A stretch of DNA of 64,000 bases from the IMG/VR virus record IMGVR_UViG_3300035696_001272, one strand, 5' to 3'. The position numbers were made by a program, and so were the translations under genes. The notes under the pieces are model-generated. The model saw only the letters and a list, made by a program, of their open reading frames with translations. It did not search any database and was not told the DNA's origin. Shown here in pieces: positions 42,893 through 61,869 of this stretch. This stretch comes from a virus. Taxonomy: Duplodnaviria > Heunggongvirae > Uroviricota > Caudoviricetes. Position 1 is the stretch's first letter. Each line of letters begins with the position of its first letter.

Positions 42893-42901
42893 TTTGGGTG
42901 C

Positions 42902-42929: not shown

Positions 42930-42980
42930 ATGTGAATAACTAGACATCAGATACAGGGGAATTTAACGAAGGATAGAACT

Positions 42981-44682: not shown

Positions 44683-44840
44683 AACTACTGAAGTGCAAGC
44701 TATGTTTGGGTGAAATTGATATCGTCGGAAACGAACGCTCTGTCAACAGAAAAGTAAAATGTCAGAAGTGCGGATTCACAAATGAATTCGAGAACAAAGG
44801 TCCGGAAGTTGTTGTGATTAAGAAGCGTCCTGTCCAATGA
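44679..44840 (+). CDS. small zinc-ribbon protein (53 aa; not in the ORF track)
   Basis: ATGA overlap; CKLC...CQKC. Confidence 0.3.
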   Translation: MKLLKCKLCLGEIDIVGNERSVNRKVKCQKCGFTNEFENKGPEVVVIKKRPVQ

Positions 44841-45762
44841 TCTGAGCTTGATTTTCTCTGAACCATTGAATAGTTTTACGCAAGCCAGTTACCAAATCAG
44901 TCTTAGCGGTCCAGCCCAACAATTCGCGGGCTCGGGTAATGTCTAACATTCTCTTTGGCTGACCATCGGAGACTTCTCCAGTAAATACAATTTCGCCTTG
45001 ATACTCTGTTAAATCTTTAACAAGATAGGCTAGATCTCTGATAGAAATATCTTCGCCAATGCCTAAGTTGATTGGCAGGTTGGTGTCAAGACCACTATTT
45101 ATTGCCTTGGCGATGGCTTCTGCCGTATCTCCAGCATAGAGGAACTCTCTAGTGGCTTCACCAGTTCCCCAGCATTTTACAGTTTTGCTATTGGTCTGAA
45201 TTGCCTCTTCAAATTTACGGACAAGAGCAGGAATAACGTGGCTGTAAGTGAGATCAAAAGAATCATATTCGCCATACATATTTACTGGTATAAGGTGAGC
45301 GCCTGCAAGATTGTATTGCTGACGATATGTTTGTCCCAGCATCATTAAGGTTCTTTTAGCCTGTCCATATGGGAAGTTTGTCTCTTCAGCGGCCCCGTTC
45401 CAAATGTCATCTTCTTTAAAAGGGGCAGGGCAAAACTTGGGATATGCGCACACTGAACCTAGTGAGTAAACTTTTGGCACACCATAAATACGAGCTGCTT
45501 CATAAACGTTGAGGGCCATCTGAGTGTTGTCTCTCAGAAAATCAGCAGGATTGATACGATTTCCAAGAATACCCGCGCACTTGGCAGCCATGTGCAAAAT
45601 GACATCTGGCCGATAGCGCCCTACATTATCTTCGAAATTAGAAAAATCTAGCACGTTTAATTCCTTACTTGATGGTGCCCAGACTTCGTGTTGATCGCCT
45701 TTTAATTTAGGAACTACATGTTTTCCAAGAAATCCAGTTCCTCCAGTTACTAATATCCTCAT
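44818..45762 (-). CDS. fcl: GDP-L-fucose synthase (GDP-4-keto-6-deoxymannose 3,5-epimerase/4-reductase)
   Basis: ILVTGGTGFLG; PYGQAK (YxxxK); SHVIPALVRKF, WGTGEATREFL, DGQPKRMLD colinear with E. coli Fcl. Confidence 0.8.
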   Translation of the reverse strand: MRILVTGGTGFLGKHVVPKLKGDQHEVWAPSSKELNVLDFSNFEDNVGRYRPDVILHMAAKCAGILGNRINPADFLRDNTQMALNVYEAARIYGVPKVYSLGSVCAYPKFCPAPFKEDDIWNGAAEETNFPYGQAKRTLMMLGQTYRQQYNLAGAHLIPVNMYGEYDSFDLTYSHVIPALVRKFEEAIQTNSKTVKCWGTGEATREFLYAGDTAEAIAKAINSGLDTNLPINLGIGEDISIRDLAYLVKDLTEYQGEIVFTGEVSDGQPKRMLDITRARELLGWTAKTDLVTGLRKTIQWFRENQAQIIGQDAS

Positions 45763-46763
45763 TTATGATGATCCTTTATTGTCTTTTCCTTACGAGCCAA
45801 TTCTAAATCAAATTTAATCATTTCATCAACCAAGTCTTCAAAACTATAAACTGGTTCCCAACCTAGTTTAGTTATTAGTTTAGTTGGGTCTCCACATAGG
45901 GCATCTACTTCTGATGGTCTTAAATAACGGGGATCAAATTCAACATATTGAGAATAATCCAAGCCAAGCTTAGAGAAGACCAACTGAGCAAACTCTTTGA
46001 CTGAATGCATCTCACCGCTGGCCACCACAAAATCATCTGCCTGTGGCGCTGTAATAATTTTATACATTGCTTCAGCCACATCTGCGGCATGTGACCAGTC
46101 TCGCTTAGCATCTAAATTACCAAGATAAAGTTTGTCCTGCAATCCGAGTTTGATTCTGGTAGCAGCCATTGTGATCTTACGAGTCACGAAGGTTTCGCCT
46201 CTACGTGGAGATTCGTGATTGAAAGAAATAGCATTACAGGCATGTAATCCGTAAGCTTCTCGATAGTTTACAGTGGCGAAGAAGCCTGCCACCTTAGCGA
46301 CTCCATAAGGAGAGCGAGGATGGAATGGCGTGTTTTCGCTCTGAGGTGGTGGTATAGAGCCAAACATTTCCGAGCTAGAGGCTGTCAAGAATTTTGTTTG
46401 TGGACTATTTTTACGAATAGCCTCCAACACTCTTATGACACCAGTACCAGTTACATCCATTGTGTACTCTGGAATATCAAAGCTAACACGCACGTGGCTT
46501 TGAGCGCCCATATTGAAAAACAAATCCGGCTTTATATCGCCTACCCAGCTTGCCAGCGATGAGTAGTCAGATAGATCACCATAGATCATTTCCAGCATAG
46601 TACTATCAACATGAGGATCAGAGTACACGTGATCAATACGGTCAGTATTAATTGAACTACTACGGCGCTTCAAGCCATAAACTTTGTAACCCTTGGCTAT
46701 TAAAGAGTCACATAGGTAAGAACCGGTTTGTCCTGTTATTCCTGTAATACATGCTGTGGGCAT
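45759..46763 (-). CDS. gmd: GDP-mannose 4,6-dehydratase
   Basis: CITGITGQTGSYL, YGVAKVAGF..NYREAYGL, NHESPRRGETFVTRKIT. Confidence 0.8.
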   Translation of the reverse strand: MPTACITGITGQTGSYLCDSLIAKGYKVYGLKRRSSSINTDRIDHVYSDPHVDSTMLEMIYGDLSDYSSLASWVGDIKPDLFFNMGAQSHVRVSFDIPEYTMDVTGTGVIRVLEAIRKNSPQTKFLTASSSEMFGSIPPPQSENTPFHPRSPYGVAKVAGFFATVNYREAYGLHACNAISFNHESPRRGETFVTRKITMAATRIKLGLQDKLYLGNLDAKRDWSHAADVAEAMYKIITAPQADDFVVASGEMHSVKEFAQLVFSKLGLDYSQYVEFDPRYLRPSEVDALCGDPTKLITKLGWEPVYSFEDLVDEMIKFDLELARKEKTIKDHHK

Positions 46764-47770
46764 ATTTCTTCTCCTGTAGATTCTTCTGCCATAGGCATTT
46801 CTTCTACAATAGGCAACATCTTTTCTTCTACAGGCATTTCTTCCTTCGGAGAAAAGGTTTCTATTATTTTATTGTAAACCCTTTTGACATCAGCAATGTA
46901 ATGAAGCCCGTAGGGGTCTCTCAAATTTGCTTCGACCTTGTTCAAAAAATCTTCATACTTTGCATCATCATATTCTTCCATAGCTTTTACTAAGCCTGGA
47001 CAGTCGATATTGTAATATCTTCCTTCTTTTTGTACGAATCTTCTCAAATCAAGATATGGAGGAATATTAAAACTATCAATGTTGTAGCAACCCATGTAAA
47101 GAGGAATAGTTCCAGCTAGCAAGACATCTGGCATCTTCTCACTGAAAAAATTGTAGCTGAATATTGGGTCGTATGAATTTTCGCAACATATTGAAAACCT
47201 TGCACTTTTCAAAGTCTCTATCTTGTTATTCGTGTCAAGCTTTCCACGATAGTATGGCTTTGGTACAAATGAATTGCCGTACCAAGAAACTTTGAACTTA
47301 GTATAGTTACTCAAATAATCTGCTAACCCCATTCTCAACGAATATAATTCTGAAGGATGTTTTGATGTTTTGTTATTAGCAACAAATACTACTTCGTTTG
47401 ATTTTAGTTTCCAAGGCAACCAGTTCTTGCGTAAATAGTCTGGATCAGTATAGCTAACACTGTAATAGTTAACTTCTACAACTTTGTCGTGAAGTGACAT
47501 ATGTTCAAATGCTTTGACAGCCCAAGTGAAGATCTTATTATATCTAGATACATAATCAAAGTTATAGTCTTTTTCATTAACACATCGTGGTTCTATAATT
47601 AGGATACTATCATCTGGATCTGGATTAGGAATTGAATACCAATTAACTCCGACATTATGAGTCCCAAAAATCTTTTTATCGGAATAAGTAATTCTAGCGC
47701 GTTCATCTTCGAATGCAACATATGAATTAGGTAAGTTGGAATATACAATTGTTATTTCTAATTTAGACAT
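46736..47770 (-). CDS. alpha-1,3-fucosyltransferase (GT10 family)
   Basis: FSICCENSYDPIFSYNFFSEK matches the GT10 motif (F.FENS...GY.TEK). Start taken at the MSKLEI Met abutting the upstream stop (track ORF extends to 47836). Confidence 0.55.
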   Translation of the reverse strand: MSKLEITIVYSNLPNSYVAFEDERARITYSDKKIFGTHNVGVNWYSIPNPDPDDSILIIEPRCVNEKDYNFDYVSRYNKIFTWAVKAFEHMSLHDKVVEVNYYSVSYTDPDYLRKNWLPWKLKSNEVVFVANNKTSKHPSELYSLRMGLADYLSNYTKFKVSWYGNSFVPKPYYRGKLDTNNKIETLKSARFSICCENSYDPIFSYNFFSEKMPDVLLAGTIPLYMGCYNIDSFNIPPYLDLRRFVQKEGRYYNIDCPGLVKAMEEYDDAKYEDFLNKVEANLRDPYGLHYIADVKRVYNKIIETFSPKEEMPVEEKMLPIVEEMPMAEESTGEEICPQHVLQE

Positions 47771-48678
47771 TATGCTCTCTTGAAAAAGTTGAGGGTAGAT
47801 TGTATACCGGCATCGATTGTCCAACCAGAATTCCATCCCTTTGAAATTAATTTGTCTGCACTTAACATAGTATATAGCATTTCGCCAGGCACAGCGTCAG
47901 CATGGATTACTTGTGATGTACTATTAAGCATGTTTAGTATCTTATCAGCGACTTGGTTTACGCTCGTTTGTGTATTGGAACTGACATTGAAGATGCCATC
48001 TAATTCAGACTCCATCGCCAACATATTAGCGGAGACTACATCATCTATATATACAAAGTCTCTGGTTTGTTCTCCATCACCAAAAATAGTCAGATTTTTA
48101 TTCTCCAAAGCATTGTTTATGAAGATAGAAATTACTCCAGCCTCTCCTTTAGCATTTTGGCGCGGCCCATAGACATTGCTGTACCTCAATACAGTGTATT
48201 GCAATCCATGTATCTTGCGAAACATCTCTAGGTACTTTTCTATTGTTAATTTGGCCAATCCATATGGAGACTCTGGTTTTGCTTCAGATGATTCCGTAAA
48301 AGGCAGAGCGGCATCAACCGAATAGATAGCTCCACCTGTAGAAGAAAAGATTACTCTTTTGACTTTATGCCTGACACAGTTTTCTAAGACATTAAGACTA
48401 CCTACGATATTAGTCAGAGCATCTTGCTGAGGTTCCCTAATGGAATGTCGTAAATTAATTTGAGCTGCTAAGTGGAAGACGTAATCAAAGTTATACTTAG
48501 CAAATAAATCATCGAGAGAATCAGTGATACTTCTCTTTATGAAAATACCGCCATGTATGTTATCAAAATTGCCCGTTGACAGATTGTCTATTATAATTAC
48601 TTCATGACCGAGTTTAACTAGTGCATCAACTACATGGCTTCCAATAAATCCAGCACCACCGGTAACTAAAATGTTCAT
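47770..48678 (-). CDS. NAD-dependent sugar epimerase/dehydratase (GalE-like extended SDR)
   Basis: ILVTGGAGFIGSH; YGLAK. Confidence 0.65.
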   Translation of the reverse strand: MNILVTGGAGFIGSHVVDALVKLGHEVIIIDNLSTGNFDNIHGGIFIKRSITDSLDDLFAKYNFDYVFHLAAQINLRHSIREPQQDALTNIVGSLNVLENCVRHKVKRVIFSSTGGAIYSVDAALPFTESSEAKPESPYGLAKLTIEKYLEMFRKIHGLQYTVLRYSNVYGPRQNAKGEAGVISIFINNALENKNLTIFGDGEQTRDFVYIDDVVSANMLAMESELDGIFNVSSNTQTSVNQVADKILNMLNSTSQVIHADAVPGEMLYTMLSADKLISKGWNSGWTIDAGIQSTLNFFKRA

Positions 48679-48679
48679 G

Positions 48680-49786
48680 TTATTTGCTTTTTATATAGTG
48701 ATTGAGGGTGTCCAATATATGATTCTGTTCCGCACCGCTCAACTCTGGATAGCTAGGTAAAATGAAACACTCTCTATTAAGAGTTTCAGCATTGGTGCAA
48801 TCACCATACGATACAACACAGTTATTGACCAAATGTGTGTGAGCGCTGATAGGGTAAAACATTGGTCGTATCTCTATATCATTGGCTTTGAAATATGCTT
48901 CTGCTTTATCGTAGCTACCATTGCTAGGAACTCTGACACCAAACATCCAGTTCGAGTGCTCAGTATTAGGAGCTTGCTTTTGGATGAACACATCTTCCCT
49001 ATTATTTAGAGCATTACAATAATTACCAAAAACAACTTTTTTCATATCAATAATATCTGGTAATATTTCTAATTGACCAAATAGAATAGCTGCCTGTATA
49101 TTAGTCATTCTATAATTATAACCAAGCTCTTTATGAACGAATCGTTTGTCAGATTGCCCTTGCCCATATAAACATTTCGCAAAAAAATAAGCATCCTCAT
49201 CGTTGGTAACGAAAGCTCCACCTTCTCCACTGGTTATGTTCTTGTTTCCAAAGAAGGAAATAGCGGAGGCGTAGCTGGCAGTGCCGGAGTATTGATCTTC
49301 ATAGGTTCCTAAAAAACCTTCACAGTTATCCTCTACAAATAAAGTGTTAGGATATTTTCTTTTTAATTCTGGAACATTGATAATGTTTCCGATGTTGTGA
49401 ACTACTAACACAGCAGCACTGGGACACATTTTGATAGTTTGATCCAGCTTTTCTAAATCATAATTCCAAGTATCAAGTTCGCACTCTACAGCAAATAATT
49501 CATAGCTAGAGTCAAATAAAAAGGCATTCCAGGCAGCCACATATACATTGTTTGGGACGATGATGGCATTTTTACCGTGTTTAGTCGAGAGGCACTTTGC
49601 TAATAAATGACAGGCGCTTGTGCCATTGTTTAATGGTAAAACGTATTTGACTCCTAATAATTCTTGTAGCTTTTCTTGTACCATCACTAAATACTTACCG
49701 TGCGAAGAAAGCCAAGTTGAATCTATAGCATCGTGTACATGCTTAAGAGAGCTGGAAGGTAAGTATGGTTTGTAAACGGGGATCAT
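48680..49786 (-). CDS. DegT/DnrJ/EryC1/StrS-family PLP sugar aminotransferase (GDP-perosamine synthase-like)
   Basis: LPLNNGTSACH; SFFGNKNITSGEGGAF (PLP-Lys region). Confidence 0.65.
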   Translation of the reverse strand: MIPVYKPYLPSSSLKHVHDAIDSTWLSSHGKYLVMVQEKLQELLGVKYVLPLNNGTSACHLLAKCLSTKHGKNAIIVPNNVYVAAWNAFLFDSSYELFAVECELDTWNYDLEKLDQTIKMCPSAAVLVVHNIGNIINVPELKRKYPNTLFVEDNCEGFLGTYEDQYSGTASYASAISFFGNKNITSGEGGAFVTNDEDAYFFAKCLYGQGQSDKRFVHKELGYNYRMTNIQAAILFGQLEILPDIIDMKKVVFGNYCNALNNREDVFIQKQAPNTEHSNWMFGVRVPSNGSYDKAEAYFKANDIEIRPMFYPISAHTHLVNNCVVSYGDCTNAETLNRECFILPSYPELSGAEQNHILDTLNHYIKSK

Positions 49787-50436
49787 TTAGATTTGATAGC
49801 TATTCCAACACCAGGCATATTTTTTTCATAGTTATGATATTCTAAATCTGGGAAAATGCTCCTCATACCATCGAAAACTTCTTTTAATCCTGCTAGGACG
49901 ATATCATCAAATAATAGAATGCCACCAGGACTTAGATGCGGTATAACATTTACAAGATCATCAATAGCGCCTTCTCTGGAGTGATCTCCATCTACCAATA
50001 TTAAATCAAATTGCATCGTCGGGTTCTTTTGGAAGAATTCTGGTATTGTCTTATGACTATCTCCACTAATGAAATGAATCTCTTTTTGATAACCTAATTT
50101 CCTCATTTCATTACCTACAAAATCTGGTCCTGGATTAGCAATACCGGCATAGTCGTATTGCCACATATCAAAACTGTAAATCTCACACTCTGGTACCGTA
50201 GCGCAGACCATGCCCAATGACCACCCTCTTCTAGTGCCTATCTCTAGATAGTTTTTAGGATGAATTTTTTTGGCAGCCCAATACACAAAGCTTCTAGTTT
50301 CAGCTTGCCCATTATTTAGTAAATTCATTAGTTCAGGACCAATTACCAAATCAGGAGTCATTGTGTTAATTATTTTCTGGACAGCTTGAAAATTTTCGGG
50401 TCTTAAAACTTCTTGGAATAATTCTTCAGATTGCAT
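49783..50436 (-). CDS. class I SAM-dependent (O-)methyltransferase
   Basis: LEIGTRRGWS; LILVDGDHS. Confidence 0.55.
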   Translation of the reverse strand: MQSEELFQEVLRPENFQAVQKIINTMTPDLVIGPELMNLLNNGQAETRSFVYWAAKKIHPKNYLEIGTRRGWSLGMVCATVPECEIYSFDMWQYDYAGIANPGPDFVGNEMRKLGYQKEIHFISGDSHKTIPEFFQKNPTMQFDLILVDGDHSREGAIDDLVNVIPHLSPGGILLFDDIVLAGLKEVFDGMRSIFPDLEYHNYEKNMPGVGIAIKSK

Positions 50437-50446
50437 TTCGCCGCCT

Positions 50447-50773
50447 TTAATATGTTTTATGTTTTCTTTGCAAAAATTTACCGTTATCTAACTCTTCGCC
50501 TGACTGTGCGGCTTCCACGATCTCTATAATTTTTTCGTCAACTTCATCAATTAGCTGATTGCGCTGCACATTCAAATCACAAGCTTTTTTGAGGCTATCC
50601 CATAAAATTTGGGCACCTTCTTCAGAAAAGTATTTTGCTTTATACTCTTCGAAAGTCATTCGACGAATCTCGTAAAGCAATTCTTGATTGTTCCACATTT
50701 TCAAGTCGATTGTAATTAACTTATCAATCAACCCTCCAAGAGTATCAGCCATGGTTTTTCTCCCTGTATTCAT
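50447..50773 (-). CDS. hypothetical protein
   Basis: 108 aa. Confidence 0.35.
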   Translation of the reverse strand: MNTGRKTMADTLGGLIDKLITIDLKMWNNQELLYEIRRMTFEEYKAKYFSEEGAQILWDSLKKACDLNVQRNQLIDEVDEKIIEIVEAAQSGEELDNGKFLQRKHKTY

Positions 50774-51311
50774 GTTCCAATTTTTCTAATCGCTCTCTAT
50801 TTCTGTAACCCAATACTCGTATTGGGCACCCCGCCACAATTGTGTATTCTGAAACGTCTTTACTAATTAAGCTTAACGCTCCTACCGAAGATCCAACTTT
50901 TAGGGTAATATTCGGTAAAATGACACTGCCACAACCGACTATGACGTGTCTCTCTAAAGTAACTGGTCCGGCTTCTACCTTCTTATACTCATCTGGTACG
51001 GTAGGACCAGTTAAATATCCTTCTTTATAATCATCTGTAGCTGTAAAAATATTGCATCGCGCCGCCATTCCTACAAAATCTTCTAGGGTAATAAGCCCAC
51101 CATTACCAGCGAGTTGTACATTGAATGCAATATGTACATTGTTGCCTATGATGATTCCCTTACCGGCAGATAAAAAAGATAGAGCATCAATTCTAACATT
51201 GGAACCAATATGAATATTTTCTGGGTGAATGAACTGAACTGAGGAGTCAATCTGGACGTTTTCTCCACAACTGCCAAAGCGCTTCAAATCTTCTTTCGAT
51301 AATGTTTTCAT
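50745..51311 (-). CDS. hexapeptide-repeat (LbH) sugar N/O-acetyltransferase
   Basis: Repeated [LIV]G..[ST]x..V hexapeptides (IGSNVRIDALSFLSAGKGIIIGNNVHIAFN). Confidence 0.55.
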   Translation of the reverse strand: MKTLSKEDLKRFGSCGENVQIDSSVQFIHPENIHIGSNVRIDALSFLSAGKGIIIGNNVHIAFNVQLAGNGGLITLEDFVGMAARCNIFTATDDYKEGYLTGPTVPDEYKKVEAGPVTLERHVIVGCGSVILPNITLKVGSSVGALSLISKDVSEYTIVAGCPIRVLGYRNRERLEKLEHEYREKNHG

Positions 51312-51386
51312 TTGTTTTTCTAACCGTCAACGTGGTTATATCAATATTATTTTATCCCTATAGTGCTCGTCATGCGGATGCGGTAA

Positions 51387-52625
51387 ATGATGCTAAAAAC
51401 AACGTATCAAATTTTTGATTCTTCAGCCGGAAAAACAATAGTTTTCCGTAATCTTTATTTTATAGATGGGAAATTTATTTTTAATGGCACAGCATCTGGC
51501 TCTGAAATTGCTACTTATCCTAATGTTCATTATCGCCATACTAAACGTGAAACTTGGGCGCCCGCAATAATGGAATTGCCAGACCAAAATGATGTTCCAG
51601 TTGTTACAACTCCTCATTTTTATTTAAAAGAATCTGTCAACAATTACATAACTCACGCTTTAGCAGATGATGTGTTTTCTGTTTTTTATAGTCTCTATCG
51701 ATGTAGAATTAATTACAACCCATGCGTTTGTATCGTAGAAACATCTGGTGGCGAAACGTTTCATGATTGTAAAGGAATATTTAGATGTCTTTTTGGACAA
51801 GAAGCTATTGGACTTAATTGTCTTAAAGAAACATACTCACAAGTTTGTTTCGAAACTTTTGTTGTAGGAAATGGAGATTCTGGTTCCATTTCTTTCGATT
51901 CTAATTATGCAAGTCCATTTCAAGATAATATTTGGAGACAATTTAGGGATGCATATTACAAGGAATCTGAGATCGATTTAGAAGTAGGTAAGAAAATACT
52001 TTATGGGGATGCAGGCAAGTTTCCCATTCAAAGTGACCTTAAAGACATATTATTAACAAATAATGTTGAAATTATCCGCTGGGACTATGTAGGTGATATC
52101 AAAGAACAGTTAAGAATACTTAAAGGTGTCAAAATTTACATTACAACCGACGGTGCCCCGGCAATAAATACTATCTTTCTTCCAGATAATGCTATAGTAA
52201 TAAATTTGGGAAGAGTATATGCAAATGGAAATTATAGAGTTCTTGGCTATTGTTCATGCCCTCTTTTCCCAGCCCTATCTCACATAGATGTTTTTTATTT
52301 TGAAGATTATTATTTGAATTATCATAAAGCACAAGATCCTTATCCAAATCCGGGCGATTTAATGGATATGATTGAGTCTCTTAATGACAAACAAAAAAAA
52401 ACGCATCTATTACAAAGGCGTGCAGAAATTTATGATAATTTTGCCTTAAAGGTTATGAACAAAATCGACTGTGCCCTCAAGCTAAATAACTTTTCTCCGA
52501 ATGCCCGCTTGCTACTTGAAAATTATTCGAATCTTGAGGAAAGAGACAAAGTAATAGAAGAGCTTAAGCGAGGAAATACAACATTTGAGTGTAATGAAAA
52601 AGTTCGTCCATTTAGAGTACCTTGA
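51387..52625 (+). CDS. putative glycosyltransferase (GT61/DUF563-like)
   Basis: ITTDGAPAINTIFLPDNAIVINLG resembles the GT61 G.HGAGL.N..F.P.GA.VIE motif. Confidence 0.35.
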   Translation: MMLKTTYQIFDSSAGKTIVFRNLYFIDGKFIFNGTASGSEIATYPNVHYRHTKRETWAPAIMELPDQNDVPVVTTPHFYLKESVNNYITHALADDVFSVFYSLYRCRINYNPCVCIVETSGGETFHDCKGIFRCLFGQEAIGLNCLKETYSQVCFETFVVGNGDSGSISFDSNYASPFQDNIWRQFRDAYYKESEIDLEVGKKILYGDAGKFPIQSDLKDILLTNNVEIIRWDYVGDIKEQLRILKGVKIYITTDGAPAINTIFLPDNAIVINLGRVYANGNYRVLGYCSCPLFPALSHIDVFYFEDYYLNYHKAQDPYPNPGDLMDMIESLNDKQKKTHLLQRRAEIYDNFALKVMNKIDCALKLNNFSPNARLLLENYSNLEERDKVIEELKRGNTTFECNEKVRPFRVP

Positions 52626-52655
52626 GTGATGCAATGATATACATTTTGGAAGGAA

Positions 52656-54233: not shown

Positions 54234-55126
54234 ACAGACTCCATAGAGCTAACGGTTTTTTCCAGTCCGGCCTTTAATGATGTGAAAGAAATATCTGGCA
54301 TTATTGTTTTCAGATAAGAGTTGCTAACAGTTTTTATTAGGTTTCCATCTGATTTGCTAGTATCAAATTGTATTTGATTTTTGAAATTCAGCACCTCTGC
54401 TATTTGATTTGCCAACTCGGCAATAGTAATTTCAGTATCTGCACAACAAATGATTGGCTTGGTATCTGAGTAATTTACAACTAAATGTTTGATTATTCTA
54501 GCTAAATCAAGAGAGTAAATGAATTGTCGTAATGGTTTTCCTGTTCCATTGATTACTACATCTGTATTATCTTTAGATGCCTTTTTAAATTTAGTGATGA
54601 GATTAGGGATTAATCGACCTGAGCTTAGATTATCGTTTGGCCCATAGATATTGCAGGGAATAATTCCAAAATATTTTTTCTCATATTGAGTATTATAATT
54701 TTGACATTGTAATTCTAGCATTCTCTTGGAATAAGAATAGCCGGCAAAAGCGCCAGTTAAATGACCATCAAAAATCATTGATTCATCCATTGGGAAAGCT
54801 TTTGGCTTTTCAGGGAACATATTCACAGAAAGACAGAACATGCCCCTCTCCACTCCCGCCAAGCTAGAAGCCTCTAGCACATTTTCATTTATTCTTACGT
54901 TGCTGGAAAAGGAGGCAACCCTGTCAATGTTGTAAAAACCCGGAACGTAGGATGCCAGATGAACCACATAGTCTGGATCAATTCTTTTGAACATCTCAAT
55001 AGTGTGCTCTTTATTCGTAAGATCACAATCTCGCCTATCGGCAAAGAACCAGTTGTCTTCGCCTTCACACACGGATTTCAAAGCGCTTCCTACACAGCCA
55101 TTGCTGCCTGTCACAAGAATTTTCAT
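54230..55126 (-). CDS. Fcl-like NAD(P)-dependent sugar epimerase/reductase
   Basis: ILVTGSNGCVGS; YSYSK; NIYGPNDN...IPNLITKF parallels Fcl (LYGPHDN..IPALLRRF). Confidence 0.55.
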   Translation of the reverse strand: MKILVTGSNGCVGSALKSVCEGEDNWFFADRRDCDLTNKEHTIEMFKRIDPDYVVHLASYVPGFYNIDRVASFSSNVRINENVLEASSLAGVERGMFCLSVNMFPEKPKAFPMDESMIFDGHLTGAFAGYSYSKRMLELQCQNYNTQYEKKYFGIIPCNIYGPNDNLSSGRLIPNLITKFKKASKDNTDVVINGTGKPLRQFIYSLDLARIIKHLVVNYSDTKPIICCADTEITIAELANQIAEVLNFKNQIQFDTSKSDGNLIKTVSNSYLKTIMPDISFTSLKAGLEKTVSSMESV

Positions 55127-56307
55127 GATGGGTAACTCAATAGTATATCAACCAACTCTTCAACTAAAGAGTCGGGCATCAGGTTGCACGATAAGCCGAT
55201 AAATAATCCACTAAAATGGCACTCCTCGGCCCCCGGAAAATCAAGAGCGTTTAAATCAGAATACAGATCTTTGATGACCGGTTGTCTAATTATGTTACCA
55301 GTAATAATTGGCCTATTCTCAACGCCATGGGTAGTTAGGTAATCTAAATAATCCGATAACTTAATATCTTTTCTTAAAAACAAAGTTACACCAAACCAAG
55401 CTATGTCGGCGTTGTCACTTTCCTTAGCGAAAGAAAGAAAGGTACTTCTTGGATCGCTTTCTATTTTTCTTTTGATATTGTAATAGTTTATCTTTCTATT
55501 ATCATTCTTGACTTTCAACTTTTGAAGTTGGCCAATACCCATTGAAGCCTGTATTTCCATCGGCCTTACATTGTAACCTAAATTGACAAACGTAAACCTT
55601 GGGTCCAAATCTGGATATTGTGCTTGGATTTGTTCTTCGTCTTTTAGATTCCTAGACCATCCATGAGCACGAAGACACTTCATTAGTTCATAGTGTTCAT
55701 TGTCATTACAAATTATCATTCCACCTTCCATTGTTGTTATGTGGTGGGAGTAATAAAATGAATATGTTCCAATAGAGCCAAAAGTTCCCAAGTATTTGTC
55801 ATTGTATTTAGAGCCTAATGACTCACATGTATCTTCTATCAAAATTAAATTGTAGCGGGTAACGATGTCTATTAGTTTCTTCATATCGGTACAGTTTCCA
55901 AGGACATGAACAAGCATAATGGCTTTTGTCTTATTAGTTATCTTTTTTTCAAGATCATACAAGTCTATATTCAAAGTTTGTGGATTTACATCAACAAATA
56001 TTGGAGTAAGATTACATTGAATAATGGGGAAAATGCTGGTAGACCAACACAGTGCCGGAACCAAAACTTCATCTCCCGGAACTAATCTATTATTACATTT
56101 GTAATTTGTAAGGACAGATAAAGCAATCAGGTTGGCCGACGAACCAGAATTTACCATCATTGCATGTTTGATCCCAATATATTCAGCAAACATTTTTTCG
56201 AAACTACTAACCTGTTCACCCATGGTAAATTTTCCAGTAATTAAAGTTTCGATCATGTTGAGAATATCTTCAGAATCATGAACATTTTGTCCCAATGGAA
56301 ATTTCAT
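55123..56307 (-). CDS. DegT-family PLP aminotransferase/dehydratase (second copy)
   Basis: MVNSGSSANLIAL; TYSFYYSHHITTMEGGMI. Confidence 0.6.
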   Translation of the reverse strand: MKFPLGQNVHDSEDILNMIETLITGKFTMGEQVSSFEKMFAEYIGIKHAMMVNSGSSANLIALSVLTNYKCNNRLVPGDEVLVPALCWSTSIFPIIQCNLTPIFVDVNPQTLNIDLYDLEKKITNKTKAIMLVHVLGNCTDMKKLIDIVTRYNLILIEDTCESLGSKYNDKYLGTFGSIGTYSFYYSHHITTMEGGMIICNDNEHYELMKCLRAHGWSRNLKDEEQIQAQYPDLDPRFTFVNLGYNVRPMEIQASMGIGQLQKLKVKNDNRKINYYNIKRKIESDPRSTFLSFAKESDNADIAWFGVTLFLRKDIKLSDYLDYLTTHGVENRPIITGNIIRQPVIKDLYSDLNALDFPGAEECHFSGLFIGLSCNLMPDSLVEELVDILLSYPS

Positions 56308-57371
56308 TTTGTGCTCGCGATACTGGTAAGTATTTCTTGCCAGCTATTATAAATGGATGCCCTTCTCATCTCATTATGGGTGGCCATACTGTTACTGATT
56401 TCATGCGTATTTACTATTCGTAGTAAATGTTCTAGGTGAGCTGGCGAATCAAAGTATTGAATGTGTTTCATATTCCCCTCATCATAAAAATCACAAGTAT
56501 CTAGCCATTTATTCAAAACTGCCGGATTACGAAGACTATTAGGATTATTAATATCATCTGGCTCTTGCGCCCTATTTATTCTGTAAAAAGTCAAATCAGA
56601 CAAAGCTCTATTTTGATGAAACAATTCTTTCATGTATGTTTTAGATGGGAAAAACATAGGAACATTTGCAGTATAGTGTTCGAATATTGACATGGATCCA
56701 TTATGATAGGGCACATGAATTGTCCCCTTATAACTATAAAGATCCTGCCAACTATATCTCCAGGAGGAATTTCTAACTGCCCCAAGACTGATGCATATAT
56801 TACCAGGAACCGTTATTTCTGATCGATCATGGATAACATATTGGTTTTTAGTTCCAGTATATTTTGCATTTGTATATTCACATAAACTTGGAATATGCAT
56901 GCCTTGAATTCCAGTCATATATTGTGTGTACCACTGATCGCCCTTATTATTACAAACGTAATATAATTTTCCTTCTGTATGTCGGCGCTTTAAAAATTCG
57001 TTCAATCTATCTCTGAGGGTTGGATTAAAAGTATTGGGATGATCGTATCTAATACAGTTTACTATTATAATCGGCTTATTGAATTTTTCATAAAGAAGCG
57101 CAAATTCTACCGGATAACAGGCAATAAAGGCATCATATTTTTGTAATTCATCTTTATTTTGCTGATAAAATTTATCGCAAACTTCTTCGGTACAGACTCC
57201 TGAACAAGTTAATTGTGTACCATCACTAAGCATAATTTTGGGTTTTGGTTTATTCATCACCCAATGATGGCCAGATAAAGACCAATCAACTACTTCATGT
57301 CCCAGATTTTTAAAGATATATGCTATGTCAGCGATTACTGAAACGTGCTGGTCTATATTGAAAAATTTCAT
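56304..57371 (-). CDS. hypothetical protein in the glycan cluster
   Basis: 355 aa; no motif. Confidence 0.35.
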   Translation of the reverse strand: MKFFNIDQHVSVIADIAYIFKNLGHEVVDWSLSGHHWVMNKPKPKIMLSDGTQLTCSGVCTEEVCDKFYQQNKDELQKYDAFIACYPVEFALLYEKFNKPIIIVNCIRYDHPNTFNPTLRDRLNEFLKRRHTEGKLYYVCNNKGDQWYTQYMTGIQGMHIPSLCEYTNAKYTGTKNQYVIHDRSEITVPGNICISLGAVRNSSWRYSWQDLYSYKGTIHVPYHNGSMSIFEHYTANVPMFFPSKTYMKELFHQNRALSDLTFYRINRAQEPDDINNPNSLRNPAVLNKWLDTCDFYDEGNMKHIQYFDSPAHLEHLLRIVNTHEISNSMATHNEMRRASIYNSWQEILTSIASTK

Positions 57372-57979
57372 TTGCCTTTACCTTTCGCTTTCTTTTGTAC
57401 CTTTTTAGATAAGCGAATACAAACTTGGGACTTATGTTCGAGATAATACATTTCAACATCATGATCCATCATGTATGGAGTCATGATATTATATAGCGTG
57501 TATGGAGAAAACCAGTACTTATGATCTGGGTGAACGGACTCTACACAATATTCATCATGCATAAATAATTGTCCGGTTCCCATATTAGGAACGGTTATTA
57601 TTATCTCTTTGTGCTCGATAGCAAATAAACTGTCTAAAAACTCTTTAGCATTCCAAACGTGTTCTAATACTTCAGGAACAATAATCACATCATATTTAGA
57701 ATCGCATTCTTTAAAATTTGTGAAATAAGTTCCTGGGCACGCTTCATTTAACTTGTCTAAATACATTTTGTTTGTATCTACACCATGCAATCTCTTAACT
57801 TTTTTAGCTAGATAGATATGAAGGTTGCTATCAGGATCGAAAACCATTGCATCAGCACAACCCACATGTAGAGTTTTCTTTTTAGCACAAATCTTTTCGA
57901 AGAATTTAAACCTATGTGTACCAATATTTTTAATAGTGATATACTGGACAAAAAAATCGTTTGTCCTATTGTAAGTCAT
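57368..57979 (-). CDS. class I SAM-dependent methyltransferase
   Basis: LHVGCADA (motif I); VLEHV. Confidence 0.5.
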   Translation of the reverse strand: MTYNRTNDFFVQYITIKNIGTHRFKFFEKICAKKKTLHVGCADAMVFDPDSNLHIYLAKKVKRLHGVDTNKMYLDKLNEACPGTYFTNFKECDSKYDVIIVPEVLEHVWNAKEFLDSLFAIEHKEIIITVPNMGTGQLFMHDEYCVESVHPDHKYWFSPYTLYNIMTPYMMDHDVEMYYLEHKSQVCIRLSKKVQKKAKGKGK

Positions 57980-58689
57980 ATTCTAATCCATTCTTTGGGT
58001 AACAAGTCTTTTGTATCATGTGGTAAAGCTGGACCAAACCAACCCTGTGGAGCAATAACGATTTTGGAAGGGCTTTTGTTCAGATAAGCTCCCCACCACG
58101 AAAAGCTACTATTAGCAATGATAGTGTGCTCACAATTTGCCATCATCGCTAAATCTCGTGCAGGAGATCCGCCTTCATAAAATATGATGTTGTCACCATG
58201 GAAATTCGCCCTGCACCAGGCCATGTCATCTGAAAATATAACATAGTGTTTTGATGATATCATTTGCATGGCTGTAGCATAATAATTCATATCTAACTGA
58301 ACATATTCTCGTCTGAGATTGAGATAATCTCCTCTGCGAACATGTACTGCCGTATGATTATAATGGATACCAAACCCCATTTTAGGTGTGAAAAGGCTTT
58401 GTATAACATCTTTAGAATCAGCGAAATACTTTTCTGATTGAAAATATCCTTCGAGATTCAAATTTGGTCGATAAGGAATTTTGGTGTATGTAAATCCTGG
58501 CTCTCTGAATGTATCAAAATTTGGAATGTTATTGGCAAAACATTCAATCAAATTAAAATTGGGCGCATCTGGCCATGGTGGAAATACATAGTCATCATTA
58601 TTTTCTACAGCCAATGCCACGGTGGCAGCCATTTGAAATAACTGATTACCCAATCTTCCTAAGTTTCCCAAGTTTTTAAAAGAAATCAT
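57976..58689 (-). CDS. alpha-1,2-fucosyltransferase (GT11 family)
   Basis: GRLGNQLFQMA (GT11 motif I); AVHVRRGDY (HxRRGD). Confidence 0.65.
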   Translation of the reverse strand: MISFKNLGNLGRLGNQLFQMAATVALAVENNDDYVFPPWPDAPNFNLIECFANNIPNFDTFREPGFTYTKIPYRPNLNLEGYFQSEKYFADSKDVIQSLFTPKMGFGIHYNHTAVHVRRGDYLNLRREYVQLDMNYYATAMQMISSKHYVIFSDDMAWCRANFHGDNIIFYEGGSPARDLAMMANCEHTIIANSSFSWWGAYLNKSPSKIVIAPQGWFGPALPHDTKDLLPKEWIRI

Positions 58690-61094
58690 TGGCGTATATT
58701 ATGATGGTCCTTGTCCAGTAGCATAATTCTTGGATGGAAAACATTGCCACCCCACATCTTTTTGTATCTTTCGATATTAGACTGTGGATAATGATAACTT
58801 GGTGTTAGGCTCAATGGCGGATGATCTAAGAAATATCTGTTAATAGCAGTTTCATCATGCCAAACTGGAATGATACCATTAGATACATCTTTATCAATCA
58901 TATCGCTACACCAGCTGGACAGTGCCAAATAATTGGCCTTTTTACCTCCACTAAATCCACCACCATAGTATTGCTTATACTTACTGCGATCTTGAACATA
59001 AAATACTGAGTTTGGATTTTCTTCGTAAGGTCCAACCCTTTGGACAAATCCACAGTGTTGTACGCCAACTAAATCGCCTAAGATTTCGCTATTTACGCGA
59101 TCAACAAATAAGCAATCTATATCTACATAGAATAGATAATCTTGTCTATTCAGCTTGTCAGCATTTTTGGTAAAGTGTTTGAATCTATCCATACTAGCAT
59201 ATGGGAAGGGTCTGTGCTCGATGTTTATCTGAACTATATTGCGCTTACTACTAATTGTATGATTGGCGTCACTAAATAGAAAATAAGTGACATCATAGTT
59301 ATCATCCATAAAGTAATTGTCTGCCGATGAAATAAGTCCTTGAATAAATCTATGATATTTACCGGTTGCTATAAGTAGCAATCCTATGGCAGTTTTTGGT
59401 ACTGGTGGCCTTTGAGTTCTTGCATATCTCGGTTTGCTTCTAATGAAACCGTCCAAACTTGCTTGCAATTGACGACTGACTTTGTGATCATTAATTGGAT
59501 TATCAAGATTGTACACATATAGTATGTCAGATAAAAATTGAGAATGTGAGCCGGACATTTCCAACATTGGGAACATCATGGCAAAATCCCAAGTCATCTG
59601 GAAAAAGACACCGTCCTTCATCAAATCTTCTTTTTTGATTCTCTTAAATAACCAGGTATAAAAGGTTCTCAAGTGAGAAGCGCCCCATCTAAATGATCTG
59701 AATGAATTTGAATCTACCACTTCCTGTGGATAAGGAGAGGATACGCCGCCCTGACCATCTGTACTGTTTTTATATTGACCATAAGTCAACCAGATATCTC
59801 GACTGGTGTAAACTTCTCTTAGGCGACCAAGTACATTATCATGTGGAAACCAATCATCACCATCTAATGTAAGGATGATCTCATCATCATCACAGCTCAT
59901 GATCATGTTGTATAGGTTGGCGAGAGCGCCCATACGAGTAGTATTTTTTATCAAAGTAACTCTGTAAGCATTGGGTGAAGCATTAACTGCTTCACTTACC
60001 TTAGCAAAGGTATCATCACTAGAACAATCATCGGTGAAGATTATTCTGAACTTGTCGTAATTTTGAGTTAGGGCAGAATTAATATTTTGAACACACCATC
60101 TGCTATTATTGTAGCTTGGAATAACGATGACAAATCTTTTGTTAGGATCTTCAAAGCTAGGCACCCCGTTTGGCGCTGTGCTTAATTGTGGGGGTGGCGG
60201 TGGGGTTGGAGCTGGTGTATTATTGCCAGTATCCCAAACCAATTTATCTCCAGATACTTTCCAGGTCCCTGTTGTTGCCTGAGTTGTCGGCTGTGGCTGC
60301 TCTTGTGTTTGAACATGATGTGAGGTTGGTGGTTTTGGACTGGCCGTTAAAACAAGTGGCGGTATATTCGGTTGCGTAACTTCAGCAAAACCCATATTTG
60401 AATTAACTGGCTGTAAAGTTATTGCTTGTTGTGGCGGCAACACATCCTGAACTGTATTGGCAACAGTATTTTTAACGGCAAACCAAATTCGTCGTTTATT
60501 TAGAGAAGTACTATTATCATTCTGGGACTGCCAGTCGTATACATAATCACCCGCATTAAATTTGGCATTGTCCATACGTTTAAAAGTCATTCCACAAGCT
60601 GTCAAAACTCTTTCGATGGCTGCTGCGGTTGGTCGACATCCCATACCACTATAGGCCAAATCATAAACGTCCTTTCCCTCTGGAACTTGAACGCACATGT
60701 TTGGATCACTAGAATCACAAACGGCAGTCTCTAGTACTAAATAAGTAGTAGAAGCACAAACTGCCTTCAAATGATCTTCGAAGGAAGCTAAATGGCAGAT
60801 TAGAGCCAAATCTAAAATCAAATCAAATTTCTGACCAAAAAAAGGCCACGGACCATCCAGGTTGGCCTTGACCACCTTGACACCAGCAAATTTCTTGCTT
60901 ACTATCTTTAAGTGCTCTTGGCGGGCATCGATGGCGGTTATTTCTGAGCCTAAACGATATAAAGAGCCACTTAGATCAGCGTGCCCACATCCCAAATCAG
61001 CTATTTTCTTGCCATAAAATTCTTTGTAGCCATAGTATTCTATGATGGCCTTGATACGCTTTTGATTCCATTCAAAGTACTTACCGTCAAACAT
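58686..61094 (-). CDS. tri-domain protein: SAM methyltransferase - Pro/Thr/Gln-rich linker - GT2 glycosyltransferase - GT6 (ABO/alpha-1,3-Gal(NAc)-transferase-like) domain
   Basis: IADLGCGHADLSG (MTase motif I); FVIVIPSYNN...FTDDCSSDDT (GT2); C-terminal YYGGGFSGG...NGIIPVWHDETAINRYFL parallels the human ABO/a3GalT segment YLGGFFGGSV...NGIEAVWHDESHLNKYLL. Confidence 0.6.
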   Translation of the reverse strand: MFDGKYFEWNQKRIKAIIEYYGYKEFYGKKIADLGCGHADLSGSLYRLGSEITAIDARQEHLKIVSKKFAGVKVVKANLDGPWPFFGQKFDLILDLALICHLASFEDHLKAVCASTTYLVLETAVCDSSDPNMCVQVPEGKDVYDLAYSGMGCRPTAAAIERVLTACGMTFKRMDNAKFNAGDYVYDWQSQNDNSTSLNKRRIWFAVKNTVANTVQDVLPPQQAITLQPVNSNMGFAEVTQPNIPPLVLTASPKPPTSHHVQTQEQPQPTTQATTGTWKVSGDKLVWDTGNNTPAPTPPPPPQLSTAPNGVPSFEDPNKRFVIVIPSYNNSRWCVQNINSALTQNYDKFRIIFTDDCSSDDTFAKVSEAVNASPNAYRVTLIKNTTRMGALANLYNMIMSCDDDEIILTLDGDDWFPHDNVLGRLREVYTSRDIWLTYGQYKNSTDGQGGVSSPYPQEVVDSNSFRSFRWGASHLRTFYTWLFKRIKKEDLMKDGVFFQMTWDFAMMFPMLEMSGSHSQFLSDILYVYNLDNPINDHKVSRQLQASLDGFIRSKPRYARTQRPPVPKTAIGLLLIATGKYHRFIQGLISSADNYFMDDNYDVTYFLFSDANHTISSKRNIVQINIEHRPFPYASMDRFKHFTKNADKLNRQDYLFYVDIDCLFVDRVNSEILGDLVGVQHCGFVQRVGPYEENPNSVFYVQDRSKYKQYYGGGFSGGKKANYLALSSWCSDMIDKDVSNGIIPVWHDETAINRYFLDHPPLSLTPSYHYPQSNIERYKKMWGGNVFHPRIMLLDKDHHNIRQ

Positions 61095-61122
61095 ATTTAA
61101 CCTTATTAGTATTAGGTTTTAT

Positions 61123-61869
61123 TCACATCGCAGGACCATGATATGGAATAAAAACTGGTTTGGTATGACCCATATAAGCATAACAATTTTGATGAAATTT
61201 AGCTAGATTATCTTTGTGGCACTTGGTTTTGAACTCTCGATATTCACCAACATCTAAAGCTCCCTCTCCAAAATGGACGCCCTTATTTTTAAGATAACCC
61301 ATTTCCCAACCCTTCATACGAGCACGGAAGTAGAAGTCGGCGTCTTCTTCGCCATAAAGCCCGTAATCAGTAGTAAAGAAACCAATTGCCTCATGAAGCT
61401 CTTTATGGAATACTGAACAAGCAGTTCCTAAATTACCAATTGGTTTTAGCTGAAATGTTTTACCATTTCTAGTTACCATAGGAAAACTTGTGGTTTCAAA
61501 ATTAATACCAACTGCTATTTTATGATTATCACTGATAATATCAGTACATTCTGTTAACCAATTGTCTGATAATTCAATGTCATTATCAATTGTACATAAG
61601 AATTCAGAATCTGGTGTGAGTTTGTCGGCTAAGAGCAAGCCCTGATTTCTACCAGCAGCAATACCTTCATTAGCTGCATTGAGATGAAGGTGGCAAGTTA
61701 TCGGAGATTTTTCTTTAAATGCTGTCAACCAATCTTGAGTTCCATCAGTGGATCCGTTATCCACAACTATCAATGTATAGGGACTTTTGGTATTAGCGAG
61801 CAAGCTATCTAACATTCGTTTGGTCAATTCGAGTCGGTTGTAAGTTACCATCATTATTGAAGTCGTCAT
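61123..61869 (-). CDS. GT2-family glycosyltransferase
   Basis: IMMVTYNRLELT...LIVVDNGSTDGT; internal DNDIE. Confidence 0.65.
   Translation of the reverse strand: MTTSIMMVTYNRLELTKRMLDSLLANTKSPYTLIVVDNGSTDGTQDWLTAFKEKSPITCHLHLNAANEGIAAGRNQGLLLADKLTPDSEFLCTIDNDIELSDNWLTECTDIISDNHKIAVGINFETTSFPMVTRNGKTFQLKPIGNLGTACSVFHKELHEAIGFFTTDYGLYGEEDADFYFRARMKGWEMGYLKNKGVHFGEGALDVGEYREFKTKCHKDNLAKFHQNCYAYMGHTKPVFIPYHGPAM

Follow-up and report, generated by a model that had tools for sequence, protein, structure and literature searches.

A phage glycan island with paired GT11 and fused GT6 transferases and a probable colitose branch in a phage-like genome of at least 477 kb

What would a tailed phage do with 17 kb of sugar genes: which glycan would they make, and on what would it be placed? 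The locus that raises this question lies in a stretch of 64,000 nucleotides (the window) from the IMG/VR virus record IMGVR_UViG_3300035696_001272 (Caudoviricetes). Here 18 back-to-back open reading frames (ORFs) at 44818-61869, with stop/start codon overlaps at many gene junctions, form an island of about 17 kb (g1 to g18, numbered by rising coordinate). The first-pass annotation had read it, from the sequence alone, as an ABO/H/Lewis-type antigen pathway of 18 genes mostly on the minus strand, and the count and orientation agree with ours (16 minus, two plus). The evidence is good for at least six glycosyltransferase domains (two GT2, GT6, GT10, GT11 and one GT-B enzyme), and three more are candidates; the modifying enzymes comprise two solid methyltransferase domains, one weak one and one acetyltransferase. 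We suggest that the island would work as a self-contained, soluble glycan assembly line, run by a phage of at least 477 kb in the cytoplasm of the infected cell.

The core of the island is formed by three adjacent genes, the middle one encoding a fusion protein:

61123-61869, minus strand: g18, GT2 glycosyltransferase, opening the long minus-strand unit (PF00535, 5e-22)
60591-61094, minus strand: g17, N-terminal S-adenosylmethionine (SAM) methyltransferase domain, residues 1-168 (PF13649, Methyltransf_25, 6e-8; PF08241, 2e-7)
59415-60137, minus strand: g17, middle inverting GT2 domain, residues ~320-560 (PF00535, 2e-16)
58686-59399, minus strand: g17, C-terminal GT6 domain, residues 566-802, retaining alpha-1,3-Gal/GalNAc-transferase of the DxD type (PF03414, 1e-30; NF041524, 2e-53; phrog_3317, 7e-40)
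57976-58689, minus strand: g16, GT11 alpha-1,2-fucosyl/colitosyl-transferase (PF01531, 4e-33; phrog_2644, 6.5e-56 over the full length)

The g17 protein (58686-61094, 802 aa) thus consists of methyltransferase, GT2 and GT6 domains, and the fusion would physically join two or three consecutive steps. Between the methyltransferase and the GT2-GT6 part lies a linker of ~110 residues (~205-315), Pro/Thr/Gln-rich and of low complexity, with a PPPPPP run, which could be a flexible tether or a glycosylation target itself.

The GT6 domain scores 107 bits against PF03414 (cut-off 25) and 181 bits against NF041524, under the curated cut-off of 250 for that model, and 203 of its residues are alignable with the BoGT6a (2e-36) and human GTA/GTB (1e-24) crystal structures; matches to BoGT6a at 2e-35 and to human ABO at 3e-24 were likewise obtained. 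It has the motifs YYGGGFSGG, VWHDETAINRY and DID. The catalytic Glu (GTA Glu303, BoGT6a Glu192) and the Trp preceding it are kept, with VWHDE in g17 and GTA and IWHDE in BoGT6a. The metal-binding DxD is also kept (VDIDC in g17, VDVDM in GTA, against FNANL in BoGT6a), which assigns g17 to one clade with P-SSM2, sequences from marine metagenomes and the Parachlamydia enzyme PaGT6. The latter is metal-dependent and transfers GalNAc to 2'-fucosylated acceptors only. Five of the six BoGT6a acceptor contacts (His122, Gly124, Thr134, Tyr153, Trp189, Glu192) are kept in g17, with Ile228/Lys231 outside the HMMER alignment. The same six contacts serve BoGT6a and human GTA/GTB for 2'-fucosyl-galactose, and His122 and Gly124 are changed to Gln and Trp in the alpha-Gal-epitope enzyme, which uses non-fucosylated acceptors (PMC3516806). 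The donor-pocket triplet is G-G-G in g17, unlike L-G-G in GTA or M-G-A in GTB, so that the donor is not callable from sequence; the pocket should be open enough for UDP-GalNAc.

The GT11 protein g16 scores 115 bits against PF01531 (cut-off 23.9) and carries all three motifs of its family, GRLGNQLFQ(MA), HVRRGDY and NSSFSWWGAYL. The motifs quoted in the first-pass annotation for GT11, GT6 and GT10 were all found, in the ORFs at 57976-58689, 58686-61094 and 46736-47836, and the CAZy-type assignments to GT11, GT6, GT10 and GT2 are upheld.

Megablast of positions 40000-64000 against 50,697 phage records gave no match, so relatives were sought at the protein level. We compared eight IMG/VR loci (L003-L010, on contigs of 9-327 kb) and one 467-kb NCBI assembly, GCA_975254265.1. 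The core, GT2 / (methyltransferase)-GT2-GT6 / GT11, is present in all relatives wherever their DNA extends far enough. GT11 directly follows the GT6 gene in every relative reaching that position (seven IMG/VR loci and L011), suggesting a functional pair. The GT2-GT6 fusion is kept in L003-L010 and L011. Its methyltransferase domain was detected in L003, L006 and L011; the shorter matches in L005 and L007-L010 may be without it. The g18 protein is kept at 43-58% identity in all eight IMG/VR relatives.

Does the island belong to the phage at all? Host DNA mis-joined to a phage contig by the assembly would explain why GC, GC3 and codon usage differ modestly and why gene orientation flips at both borders. 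The island has 37.6% GC against 41.7% elsewhere in the window and a lower GC3, and the correlation of relative synonymous codon usage is r 0.72-0.77, against 0.92; this bias fits a horizontal origin or a different selective regime. On the other side, exact island proteins recur on up to five contigs (JGI, ENA, Logan), the longest of 476,653 bp. The exact 802-aa g17 is found on five contigs, two of them of 0.2-1 Mb, and its neighbours are on the 476,653-bp contig, which three sources record. An ENA contig spans the right border of the island with 100% identity along 15.3 kb, diverged relatives (65-76% nucleotide identity) have the same genes beside the same Thg1-side flank, and the core stands on eight IMG/VR viral contigs. 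The mis-join, a possibility that the first-pass annotation had itself raised, was rejected on the recurrence across assemblies, the identical right border and the shared flank, and we leave it next to no probability. The conservation was seen for the right flank; among the genes upstream of the left border, none matched the related loci.

The island forms an integral part of a phage-like genome whose size is 477 kb or more. The best matches of the window proteins in the phage database are uncultured phages of 462-642 kb, and the window holds 11 tRNAs, a tyrosyl-tRNA synthetase and PHROG matches. Capsid, portal and terminase genes were not found in the 64-kb window, so the phage identity relies on this indirect evidence and on the IMG/VR membership of the relatives.

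Which sugars would the core enzymes receive? The nucleotide-sugar genes are the following:

45759-46763, minus strand: g2, GDP-mannose 4,6-dehydratase, Gmd (TIGR01472, 1.9e-129; PF16363, 1e-120)
44818-45762, minus strand: g1, GDP-L-fucose synthase, Fcl (NF047922, 9e-77; PF01370, 4e-50)
55123-56307, minus strand: g13, ColD-type GDP-4-keto-6-deoxymannose 3-dehydratase of the DegT fold (PDB 2gms/3gr9, ColD, 1e-79)
54230-55126, minus strand: g12, second Fcl-family reductase/epimerase, assigned as probable GDP-L-colitose synthase, ColC (NF047922, 1e-46)
48680-49786, minus strand: g5, pyridoxal phosphate (PLP) sugar aminotransferase (PF01041, 4e-64; PDB 3bn1/3dr4, perosamine synthetase, 1e-44)
47770-48678, minus strand: g4, UDP-hexose 4-epimerase, GalE-like (PDB 4zrm, UDP-glucose 4-epimerase, 1e-82; TIGR01179, 1e-53)

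The Gmd score of 431.7 bits against TIGR01472 is over the curated cut-off of 415 bits. The product of Gmd, GDP-4-keto-6-deoxymannose, is the intermediate common to the GDP-sugar branches, and we propose that it would be split three ways, by Fcl to GDP-L-fucose, by ColD and ColC to GDP-L-colitose and by g5 to GDP-perosamine. The fcl gene g1 overlaps the Gmd stop codon, and its protein is 81% identical to the L011 orthologue, which also adjoins Gmd. The GalE-like g4 would supply UDP-Gal and/or UDP-GalNAc. The first-pass assignments of Gmd, Fcl, a second Fcl-like reductase, a GalE-like epimerase, two GT2, GT11, GT6 and a left-handed beta-helix (LbH) acetyltransferase all have profile or PDB matches far above chance.

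The same annotation counted two DegT aminotransferases, and one of them stands. The g5 protein keeps the catalytic Lys in the motif SFFGNKNITSGEGG; its nearest solved structure is GDP-perosamine synthase, and it probably makes GDP-perosamine. The g13 protein (394 aa) matches the DegT family at 2e-83, and its PDB matches rank E. coli O55 ColD (1e-79) before a CDP-sugar E1 dehydrase (2e-65) and perosamine synthase (1e-44). In g13 a His occupies the column of the PLP-binding Lys, where SFYYSHHITTMEGG aligns with SFYSHHIATMEGG of ColD; by its sequence g13 is a ColD-type dehydratase, not an aminotransferase.

The start of g12 overlaps the stop codon of colD (g13). Its orthologue group (73-78% identity) always adjoins ColD in two other huge-phage genomes, L011 and L012, and against g1 the identity is only 28%. 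From this gene context g12 is probably ColC, and the island probably makes GDP-colitose besides GDP-fucose. With a ColD/ColC branch beside GT11 and GT6, the sugar of the predicted H-like step may be colitose instead of fucose. The alpha-1,2-fucosyltransferase-type WbgN of E. coli O55 accepts both GDP-colitose and GDP-fucose. No report of a phage colitose pathway was found in the open-access literature text.

The order of steps that we propose is that the GT2 domain would lay down a beta-galactoside, GT11 would put alpha-1,2 fucose or colitose on it, and the fused DxD-type GT6 would put alpha-1,3 Gal or GalNAc on the same galactose, in the manner of E. coli O86 WbnJ, WbnK and WbnI. An A/B-like trisaccharide, or the colitose (3-deoxy) counterpart of it, is the probable product, and given the predicted ColD/ColC pair the colitose analogue is as possible as an ABO/H-type product. 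The first-pass view that GT11 and GT6 together build H and A/B-type epitopes is retained for the families, for the five of six acceptor residues and for the gene adjacency, but the fucose may be replaced by colitose. The further suggestion of an epitope mimicking eukaryotes was set aside as unsupported, though not disproved: DxD-type GT6 is widespread in cyanophages and environmental metagenomes and is viewed as ancestral (PMC3516806).

The first-pass annotation had added Lewis-type fucosylation by GT10, encoded by the gene beside gmd:

46736-47770, minus strand: g3, distant GT10-family (alpha-1,3/4-fucosyltransferase-type) GT-B enzyme (family profile and predicted fold; motif FSICCENSYDPIFSYNFFSEK)

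The g3 ORF has 366 aa (46736-47836), and the start called in public assemblies gives 344 aa; the motif CCENSYDP...FFSEK is present in the ORF. No PF00852 match was obtained for g3 in Pfam even at E<=10, and the single sequence reaches only E=0.013 in PDB, to a plant GT10 structure. Among its listed homologues (40-50% identity), 13 of 25 match PF00852 and one is named GT10 by NCBI. The family profile detected solely GT10 chains in PDB (9s6a Arabidopsis FucTA, 4e-12; 2nzw H. pylori FucT, 5e-12; FUT9, 2e-6), with alignments centred on the donor-binding motif (FENS...YxTEK; FxxxFENSxxxxYxTEK). E197, N198, E211 and K212 are invariant in the family, and the AlphaFold2 model (mean predicted local distance difference test score 88.7) has a GT-B fold that matches 2nzx and FUT9 among others. 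The GT10 call is borne out in this way, by the family profile rather than by a direct Pfam match, and we accept g3 as a divergent relative of GT10. Counterparts of g3 among the 50,697 phage records were zero.

GT10, a GT-B enzyme and the other candidate transferases would extend or branch the glycan, and methyl and acetyl groups would be added. The remaining genes of the island are listed here:

49783-50436, minus strand: g6, class I SAM methyltransferase, O-methyltransferase-like (PF13578, Methyltransf_24, 7e-20; PF01596, 8e-10)
50447-50752, minus strand: g7, small protein, weakly DUF4254-like (PF14063, E=0.016 only)
50745-51311, minus strand: g8, left-handed beta-helix acetyltransferase of LacA/WbbJ type (PF00132, 4e-8; NF007076, 2e-14; WbbJ, 1e-10)
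51387-52625, plus strand: g9, candidate glycosyltransferase, weakly GT61/DUF563-like (PF04577, E=9.6e-4)
52656-53459, plus strand: g10, conserved uncharacterised protein (invariant RDxDS motif and a Cys/His cluster)
53460-54233, minus strand: g11, probable GT-A (GT2-like) glycosyltransferase (family profile)
56304-57371, minus strand: g14, GT-B fold (GT4-like) glycosyltransferase (family without a Pfam model)
57368-57979, minus strand: g15, weak class I methyltransferase-like protein (PF13489, 4e-4)

Direct Pfam, NCBIfam and PHROG scans of g3, g7, g9, g10, g11 and g14 gave nothing significant. Two transferases were overlooked in the first reading, the GT-B enzyme g14 (56304-57371) and the probable GT-A enzyme g11 (53460-54233). 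One of at least 584 members of a family for which Pfam has no model, the g14 protein (355 aa), encoded between colD and the GT11 gene, is a GT-B glycosyltransferase. Its matches in the viral structure library are generic GT-B ones only, and the family has no match in the 50,697 phage records. The g11 family (415 homologues) matches PF00535 in two of 32 members, and the best PDB match of its profile is a glycosyltransferase, 6p61 (E=0.024); Asp102 is invariant at the H-T-D / D-S-D position. We consider g11 a probable GT-A enzyme.

The label of a DxD GT-A enzyme given to g10 is conjectural: the RDxDS motif is invariant, but 343 homologues include none with a relevant Pfam domain, and the family profile finds nothing in PDB or Pfam. 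A glycosyltransferase role of g10 is possible. The g10 and g11 genes are convergent neighbours without a spacer in the window. Three metagenomic proteins of 545-568 aa (P0372, P0280 and P0330) have a g11-like N-terminal domain fused to a g10-like C-terminal domain, and these natural fusions suggest that g10 and g11 work together.

For g9 the GT61-like call has a faint match in its favour, which at 19.9 bits against PF04577 is under the 27-bit cut-off; no PHROG or NCBIfam match was found, and g9 is absent from L011 and L012. Three SAM methyltransferases had been counted, and two of them are solid (7e-20 in g6, 6e-8 in g17); the third, g15, has only 20.6 bits against PF13489 (cut-off 27) and is kept at 49-54% identity in L003-L006. 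At the place equivalent to g7, L011 and L012 have an 86-aa DUF4254 gene.

The g14 family is frequent in metagenome-assembled genomes (MAGs) of Chlamydiota, in at least 7 of 26 bacterial loci (L016-L041), and bacterial g14-like genes often adjoin Gmd, GT10 and g10-like genes. Chlamydiota is the phylum with the only described bacterial DxD-type GT6 (Parachlamydia). Some of the MAG contigs may be mis-binned phage, for instance a 204-kb Bacteroidetes contig with GT6 (L017).

The sugar-nucleotide genes vary between relatives while the core stays. ColD, ColC, g11 and g10 are retained in the two closest genomes (L011 and L012), in which C-methyltransferase-type genes replace the g5-g9 segment and GT10. 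A conserved capping core with a variable cassette is how diversifying selection on a glycan shows itself, and the variable middle of the island would diversify the glycan between related phages.

Where would this glycan be placed? Wzx, Wzy, an ABC transporter (Wzm/Wzt), WaaL and a priming transferase were found neither in the island nor in the 64-kb window. All 18 island proteins are without a hydrophobic 19-mer above 1.6, and no polytopic ORF was found in the window besides one 171-aa protein with four segments. The phage-type GT6 is without the C-terminal membrane-binding domain of bacterial GT6 (PMC3516806). The missing export genes, the GT6 without a membrane tail, the multi-domain transferase-methyltransferase design and a bacterial C39-type locus, described below, suggest a cytoplasmic protein acceptor. 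By analogy with other viruses, a phage protein is the most likely acceptor, the glycan forming a coat on virion proteins made in the cytoplasm, and our confidence in it is somewhat less than even.

The same enzymes could instead remodel the host envelope, as the first-pass annotation had also proposed. The transferases would then work from the cytoplasmic side of the membrane, with their target a host undecaprenyl-diphosphate (Und-PP)-linked O-unit, capsule or O-glycan precursor, which a host flippase, ligase or oligosaccharyltransferase would export. The altered cell surface would, in a long infection, exclude superinfecting phages or keep progeny off debris. All biochemically characterised homologues serve the synthesis of lipopolysaccharide (LPS) O-antigen (E. 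coli O86 WbnH/J/K/I, BoGT6a, E. coli O55 ColD, WbgN), and for the P-SSM2 cluster, with which the island has Gmd, Fcl-like, GT2, GT11 and GT6 genes in common, remodelling has been proposed in print. The lower GC and the codon usage of the island resemble those of bacterial O-antigen loci, and many bacteria have g14, GT10, Gmd and g10 together in their glycan loci. Besides the missing Wzx, Wzy, Wzm/Wzt, WaaL and priming transferase and the GT6 without its membrane-binding domain, two points speak against it: up to nine transferase domains suffice for a whole new glycan, and host Wzx/Wzy are usually unit-specific; and the core is kept in phages without sign of lysogeny genes in the window. Envelope remodelling is a distinct possibility, to be held tentatively and well short of even confidence.

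One bacterial locus bears on the acceptor from another side. In Chitinophaga hostae 2R12 (NZ_JAGTXB010000014.1, 390-15454; L035) thioredoxin/VKOR genes on one side and a C39-peptidase ABC exporter with HlyD on the other flank homologues of g14, g10 and GT10. This layout, typical of loci for glycocins or RiPPs (ribosomally synthesised and post-translationally modified peptides), hints that the g14, g10 and GT10 families can act on peptides. It would also agree with a product that decorates neither virion nor envelope: a small glycoconjugate in soluble or secreted form, such as a glycocin-like peptide or free oligosaccharide, that acts on competitors or serves as a decoy. A precursor peptide, a C39 exporter and a thioredoxin were all missing from the island and its vicinity, and the layout was met in one bacterial locus only, so we regard such a product as improbable.

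Sugar hypermodification of the phage DNA, with glycans on hydroxymethylated bases for restriction evasion, is less probable still and hardly to be expected. Phage glycosyltransferases are known that attach diverse glycans to DNA as hypermodifications (cited in PMC12619734), and the T4 alpha-glucosyltransferase turns up as a generic GT-B match in the structure comparisons, where dozens of other GT-B enzymes match at least as well. GT6, GT10, GT11, the GDP-deoxyhexose pathways and the sugar methyl- and acetyltransferases are surface-glycan families, and the window showed no gene for a base hydroxymethylase or anything related.

In its full form the preferred reading is that phages of one lineage, with genomes above 400 kb, would cover their virion proteins with a methylated glycan of colitose/fucose and perosamine that bears an A/B-like cap and is made in the bacterial cytoplasm by soluble phage enzymes alone; as a whole we consider this possible but doubtful. 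If true, bacterial viruses would have a counterpart to the autonomous glycosylation machinery of giant eukaryotic viruses, and the swappable middle of the island would be a serotype-switching cassette.

Several points count against the main reading, the assembly line with a phage protein as acceptor. For the sugars, the linkages are deduced from family membership, and Thr134 of the BoGT6a acceptor contacts is Pro in g17. The perosamine call for g5 follows from the best PDB match and from Gmd being the sole 4,6-dehydratase of the island. The sequence does not separate ColC from Fcl, having no distinguishing signature; the single short-chain dehydrogenase/reductases (SDRs) of cyanophages, compared with g1 and g12, are slightly nearer to g1 and do not discriminate. 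For the acceptor, the characterised homologues (WbnH/J/K/I, BoGT6a, H. pylori FucT, WbgN) use lipid-linked LPS precursors or free oligosaccharides, not proteins. Since the bacterial homologues too are soluble or peripheral, the lack of transmembrane segments discriminates weakly. The C39 exporter link is seen in only one of the 26 bacterial loci, no virion gene lies near the island, and the scan for wzx, wzy or a priming transferase covered the 64-kb window.

How does the island compare with known systems? The combination of Gmd, Fcl-like, GT11 and GT6 is not unprecedented. Prochlorococcus phage P-SSM2 has it in one cluster, with Gmd, two Fcl-like, two GT2, a GT1/4-type, GT11, DxD-type GT6 and GT25 genes; in Synechococcus phage ACG-2014f Gmd is accompanied by an SDR, a His-type ColD-like gene, GT11 and GT6; and in Synechococcus phage S-8S53 GT11 is directly beside GT6. 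These clusters and the island alike are phage-encoded in lytic-type phages, and no wzx or wzy is annotated in the cyanophage clusters (PMC1079782), nor is there one in the island. Altogether 72 phage records match the GT6 domain, and the phage clade of GT6 has already been treated in the literature on this family (PMC3516806). The identity to the cyanophage proteins is only 26-36%. In the island GT6 is fused to GT2 and methyltransferase domains, GT25 is absent, and separate Fcl and putative ColC paralogues and an extra aminotransferase branch are present; the genome is of at least 477 kb, against 170-250 kb in cyanophages.

In ACG-2014f the gene Syn7803C19_211 (8974-10167 of the locus), annotated as a hypothetical protein, encodes a His-type ColD-like sugar 3-dehydratase between Gmd/SDR and GT11/GT6, and LR756502 has two His-type ColD-like genes. 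By these sequences a colitose-type branch seems to have gone unannotated in known cyanophages.

The E. coli O86 locus (WbnH GT4, WbnJ GT2, WbnK GT11, WbnI GT6 and gmd/fcl, making a blood-group-B-like unit) has the same family set as the island core. It differs in its separate proteins acting on Und-PP-GalNAc and in having no methyltransferases, colitose or GT10. The O86 locus also carries wzx and wzy, and the island has neither. BoGT6a, unlike the island GT6, has NxN and a membrane-binding tail and is unfused; PaGT6, P-SSM2 and the vertebrate enzymes share DxD with the island. With the GDP-colitose pathway of E. coli O55/O111 and Vibrio cholerae O139 (Gmd, ColD, ColC, WbgN) the island shares Gmd, a ColD with His, a coupled Fcl-family partner and a nearby GT11-type transferase; it differs in being phage-encoded and in its ColC being assigned from context.

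Among giant viruses, chlorovirus PBCV-1 A064R is a multi-domain GT-GT-methyltransferase and Mimivirus has fibril clusters; virion glycosylation of mycobacteriophages was reportedly described by Freeman in 2023 (cited in PMC12619734). In such systems soluble sugar-nucleotide enzymes encoded by the virus and multi-domain transferase-methyltransferase proteins build glycans with rare methylated deoxy and amino sugars on virion proteins in the cytoplasm. The likeness of the island to giant viruses and mycobacteriophages is a working analogy: the sequence relation is limited to generic folds.

New in the island are the huge-phage setting, the three-domain fusion, the GT10 relative, the unmodelled GT-B family, the separate Fcl and putative ColC, the aminotransferase branch and the predicted colitose branch beside phage GT11/GT6 pairs. 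Phage LPS clusters with GT6 and GT11 have been annotated since 2005. The island is the richest version met here, with three predicted GDP-sugar branches from one intermediate, and includes at least one glycosyltransferase family without a Pfam model yet with hundreds of metagenomic members. It gives soluble proteins for testing A/B-like against colitose epitopes and a virion against a host-envelope acceptor. It also bears on the proposal that DxD-type prokaryotic and phage GT6 are ancestors of the vertebrate ABO family, the DxD type being regarded as the ancestral type of that family (PMC3516806).

The layout of the island suggests three transcription units:

61869 to 53460, minus strand: unit 1, g18 to g11 (from gene orientation)
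51387-53459, plus strand: unit 2, g9 and g10 (from gene orientation)
51311 to 44818, minus strand: unit 3, g8 to g1 (from gene orientation)

Promoter and terminator consensus scans of the island showed no enrichment over shuffled sequence (69 against 64.9 and 11 against 11.5, respectively), so the units are deduced from gene orientation alone.

Outside the island, the window has further genes of interest. Isocitrate lyase (PF00463, 4e-106) followed by malate synthase (PF01274, 9e-111) at 7198-9947 is a complete phage-encoded glyoxylate-shunt pair. At 10073-11473 a PARP-like protein combines WGR, PARP regulatory and PARP catalytic domains in a eukaryote-style architecture, with a weak match to a PHROG annotated as polymerase. 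Eleven tRNAs (four Leu, three Glu, three Arg and one His) are scattered among small ORFs at 9955-16283, and the tyrosyl-tRNA synthetase gene (17951-19144; phrog_9270, 2e-115) comes after this region. IF3, a PTH2-like gene and Thg1 are encoded on the same contig beyond the window. Two MoxR/CobS-like AAA ATPases and a DUF2201 protein with a metallopeptidase-like N-terminus and a VWA-like domain (19903-22817 and 29389-30495) have a CobS/CobT-like pairing, and an RlaP-type nucleotidyltransferase is encoded at 25664-26812. Directly upstream of the island, at 33270-43959, lies a large RNA-repair module with two Pnkp-like kinase/phosphatases, three RNA ligases (two PF09414 and one PF09511) and a metallophosphatase. 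At the other border an IscU/NifU_N iron-sulfur scaffold gene (61935-62375; 2e-52) is divergent from g18, with 65 bp between them.

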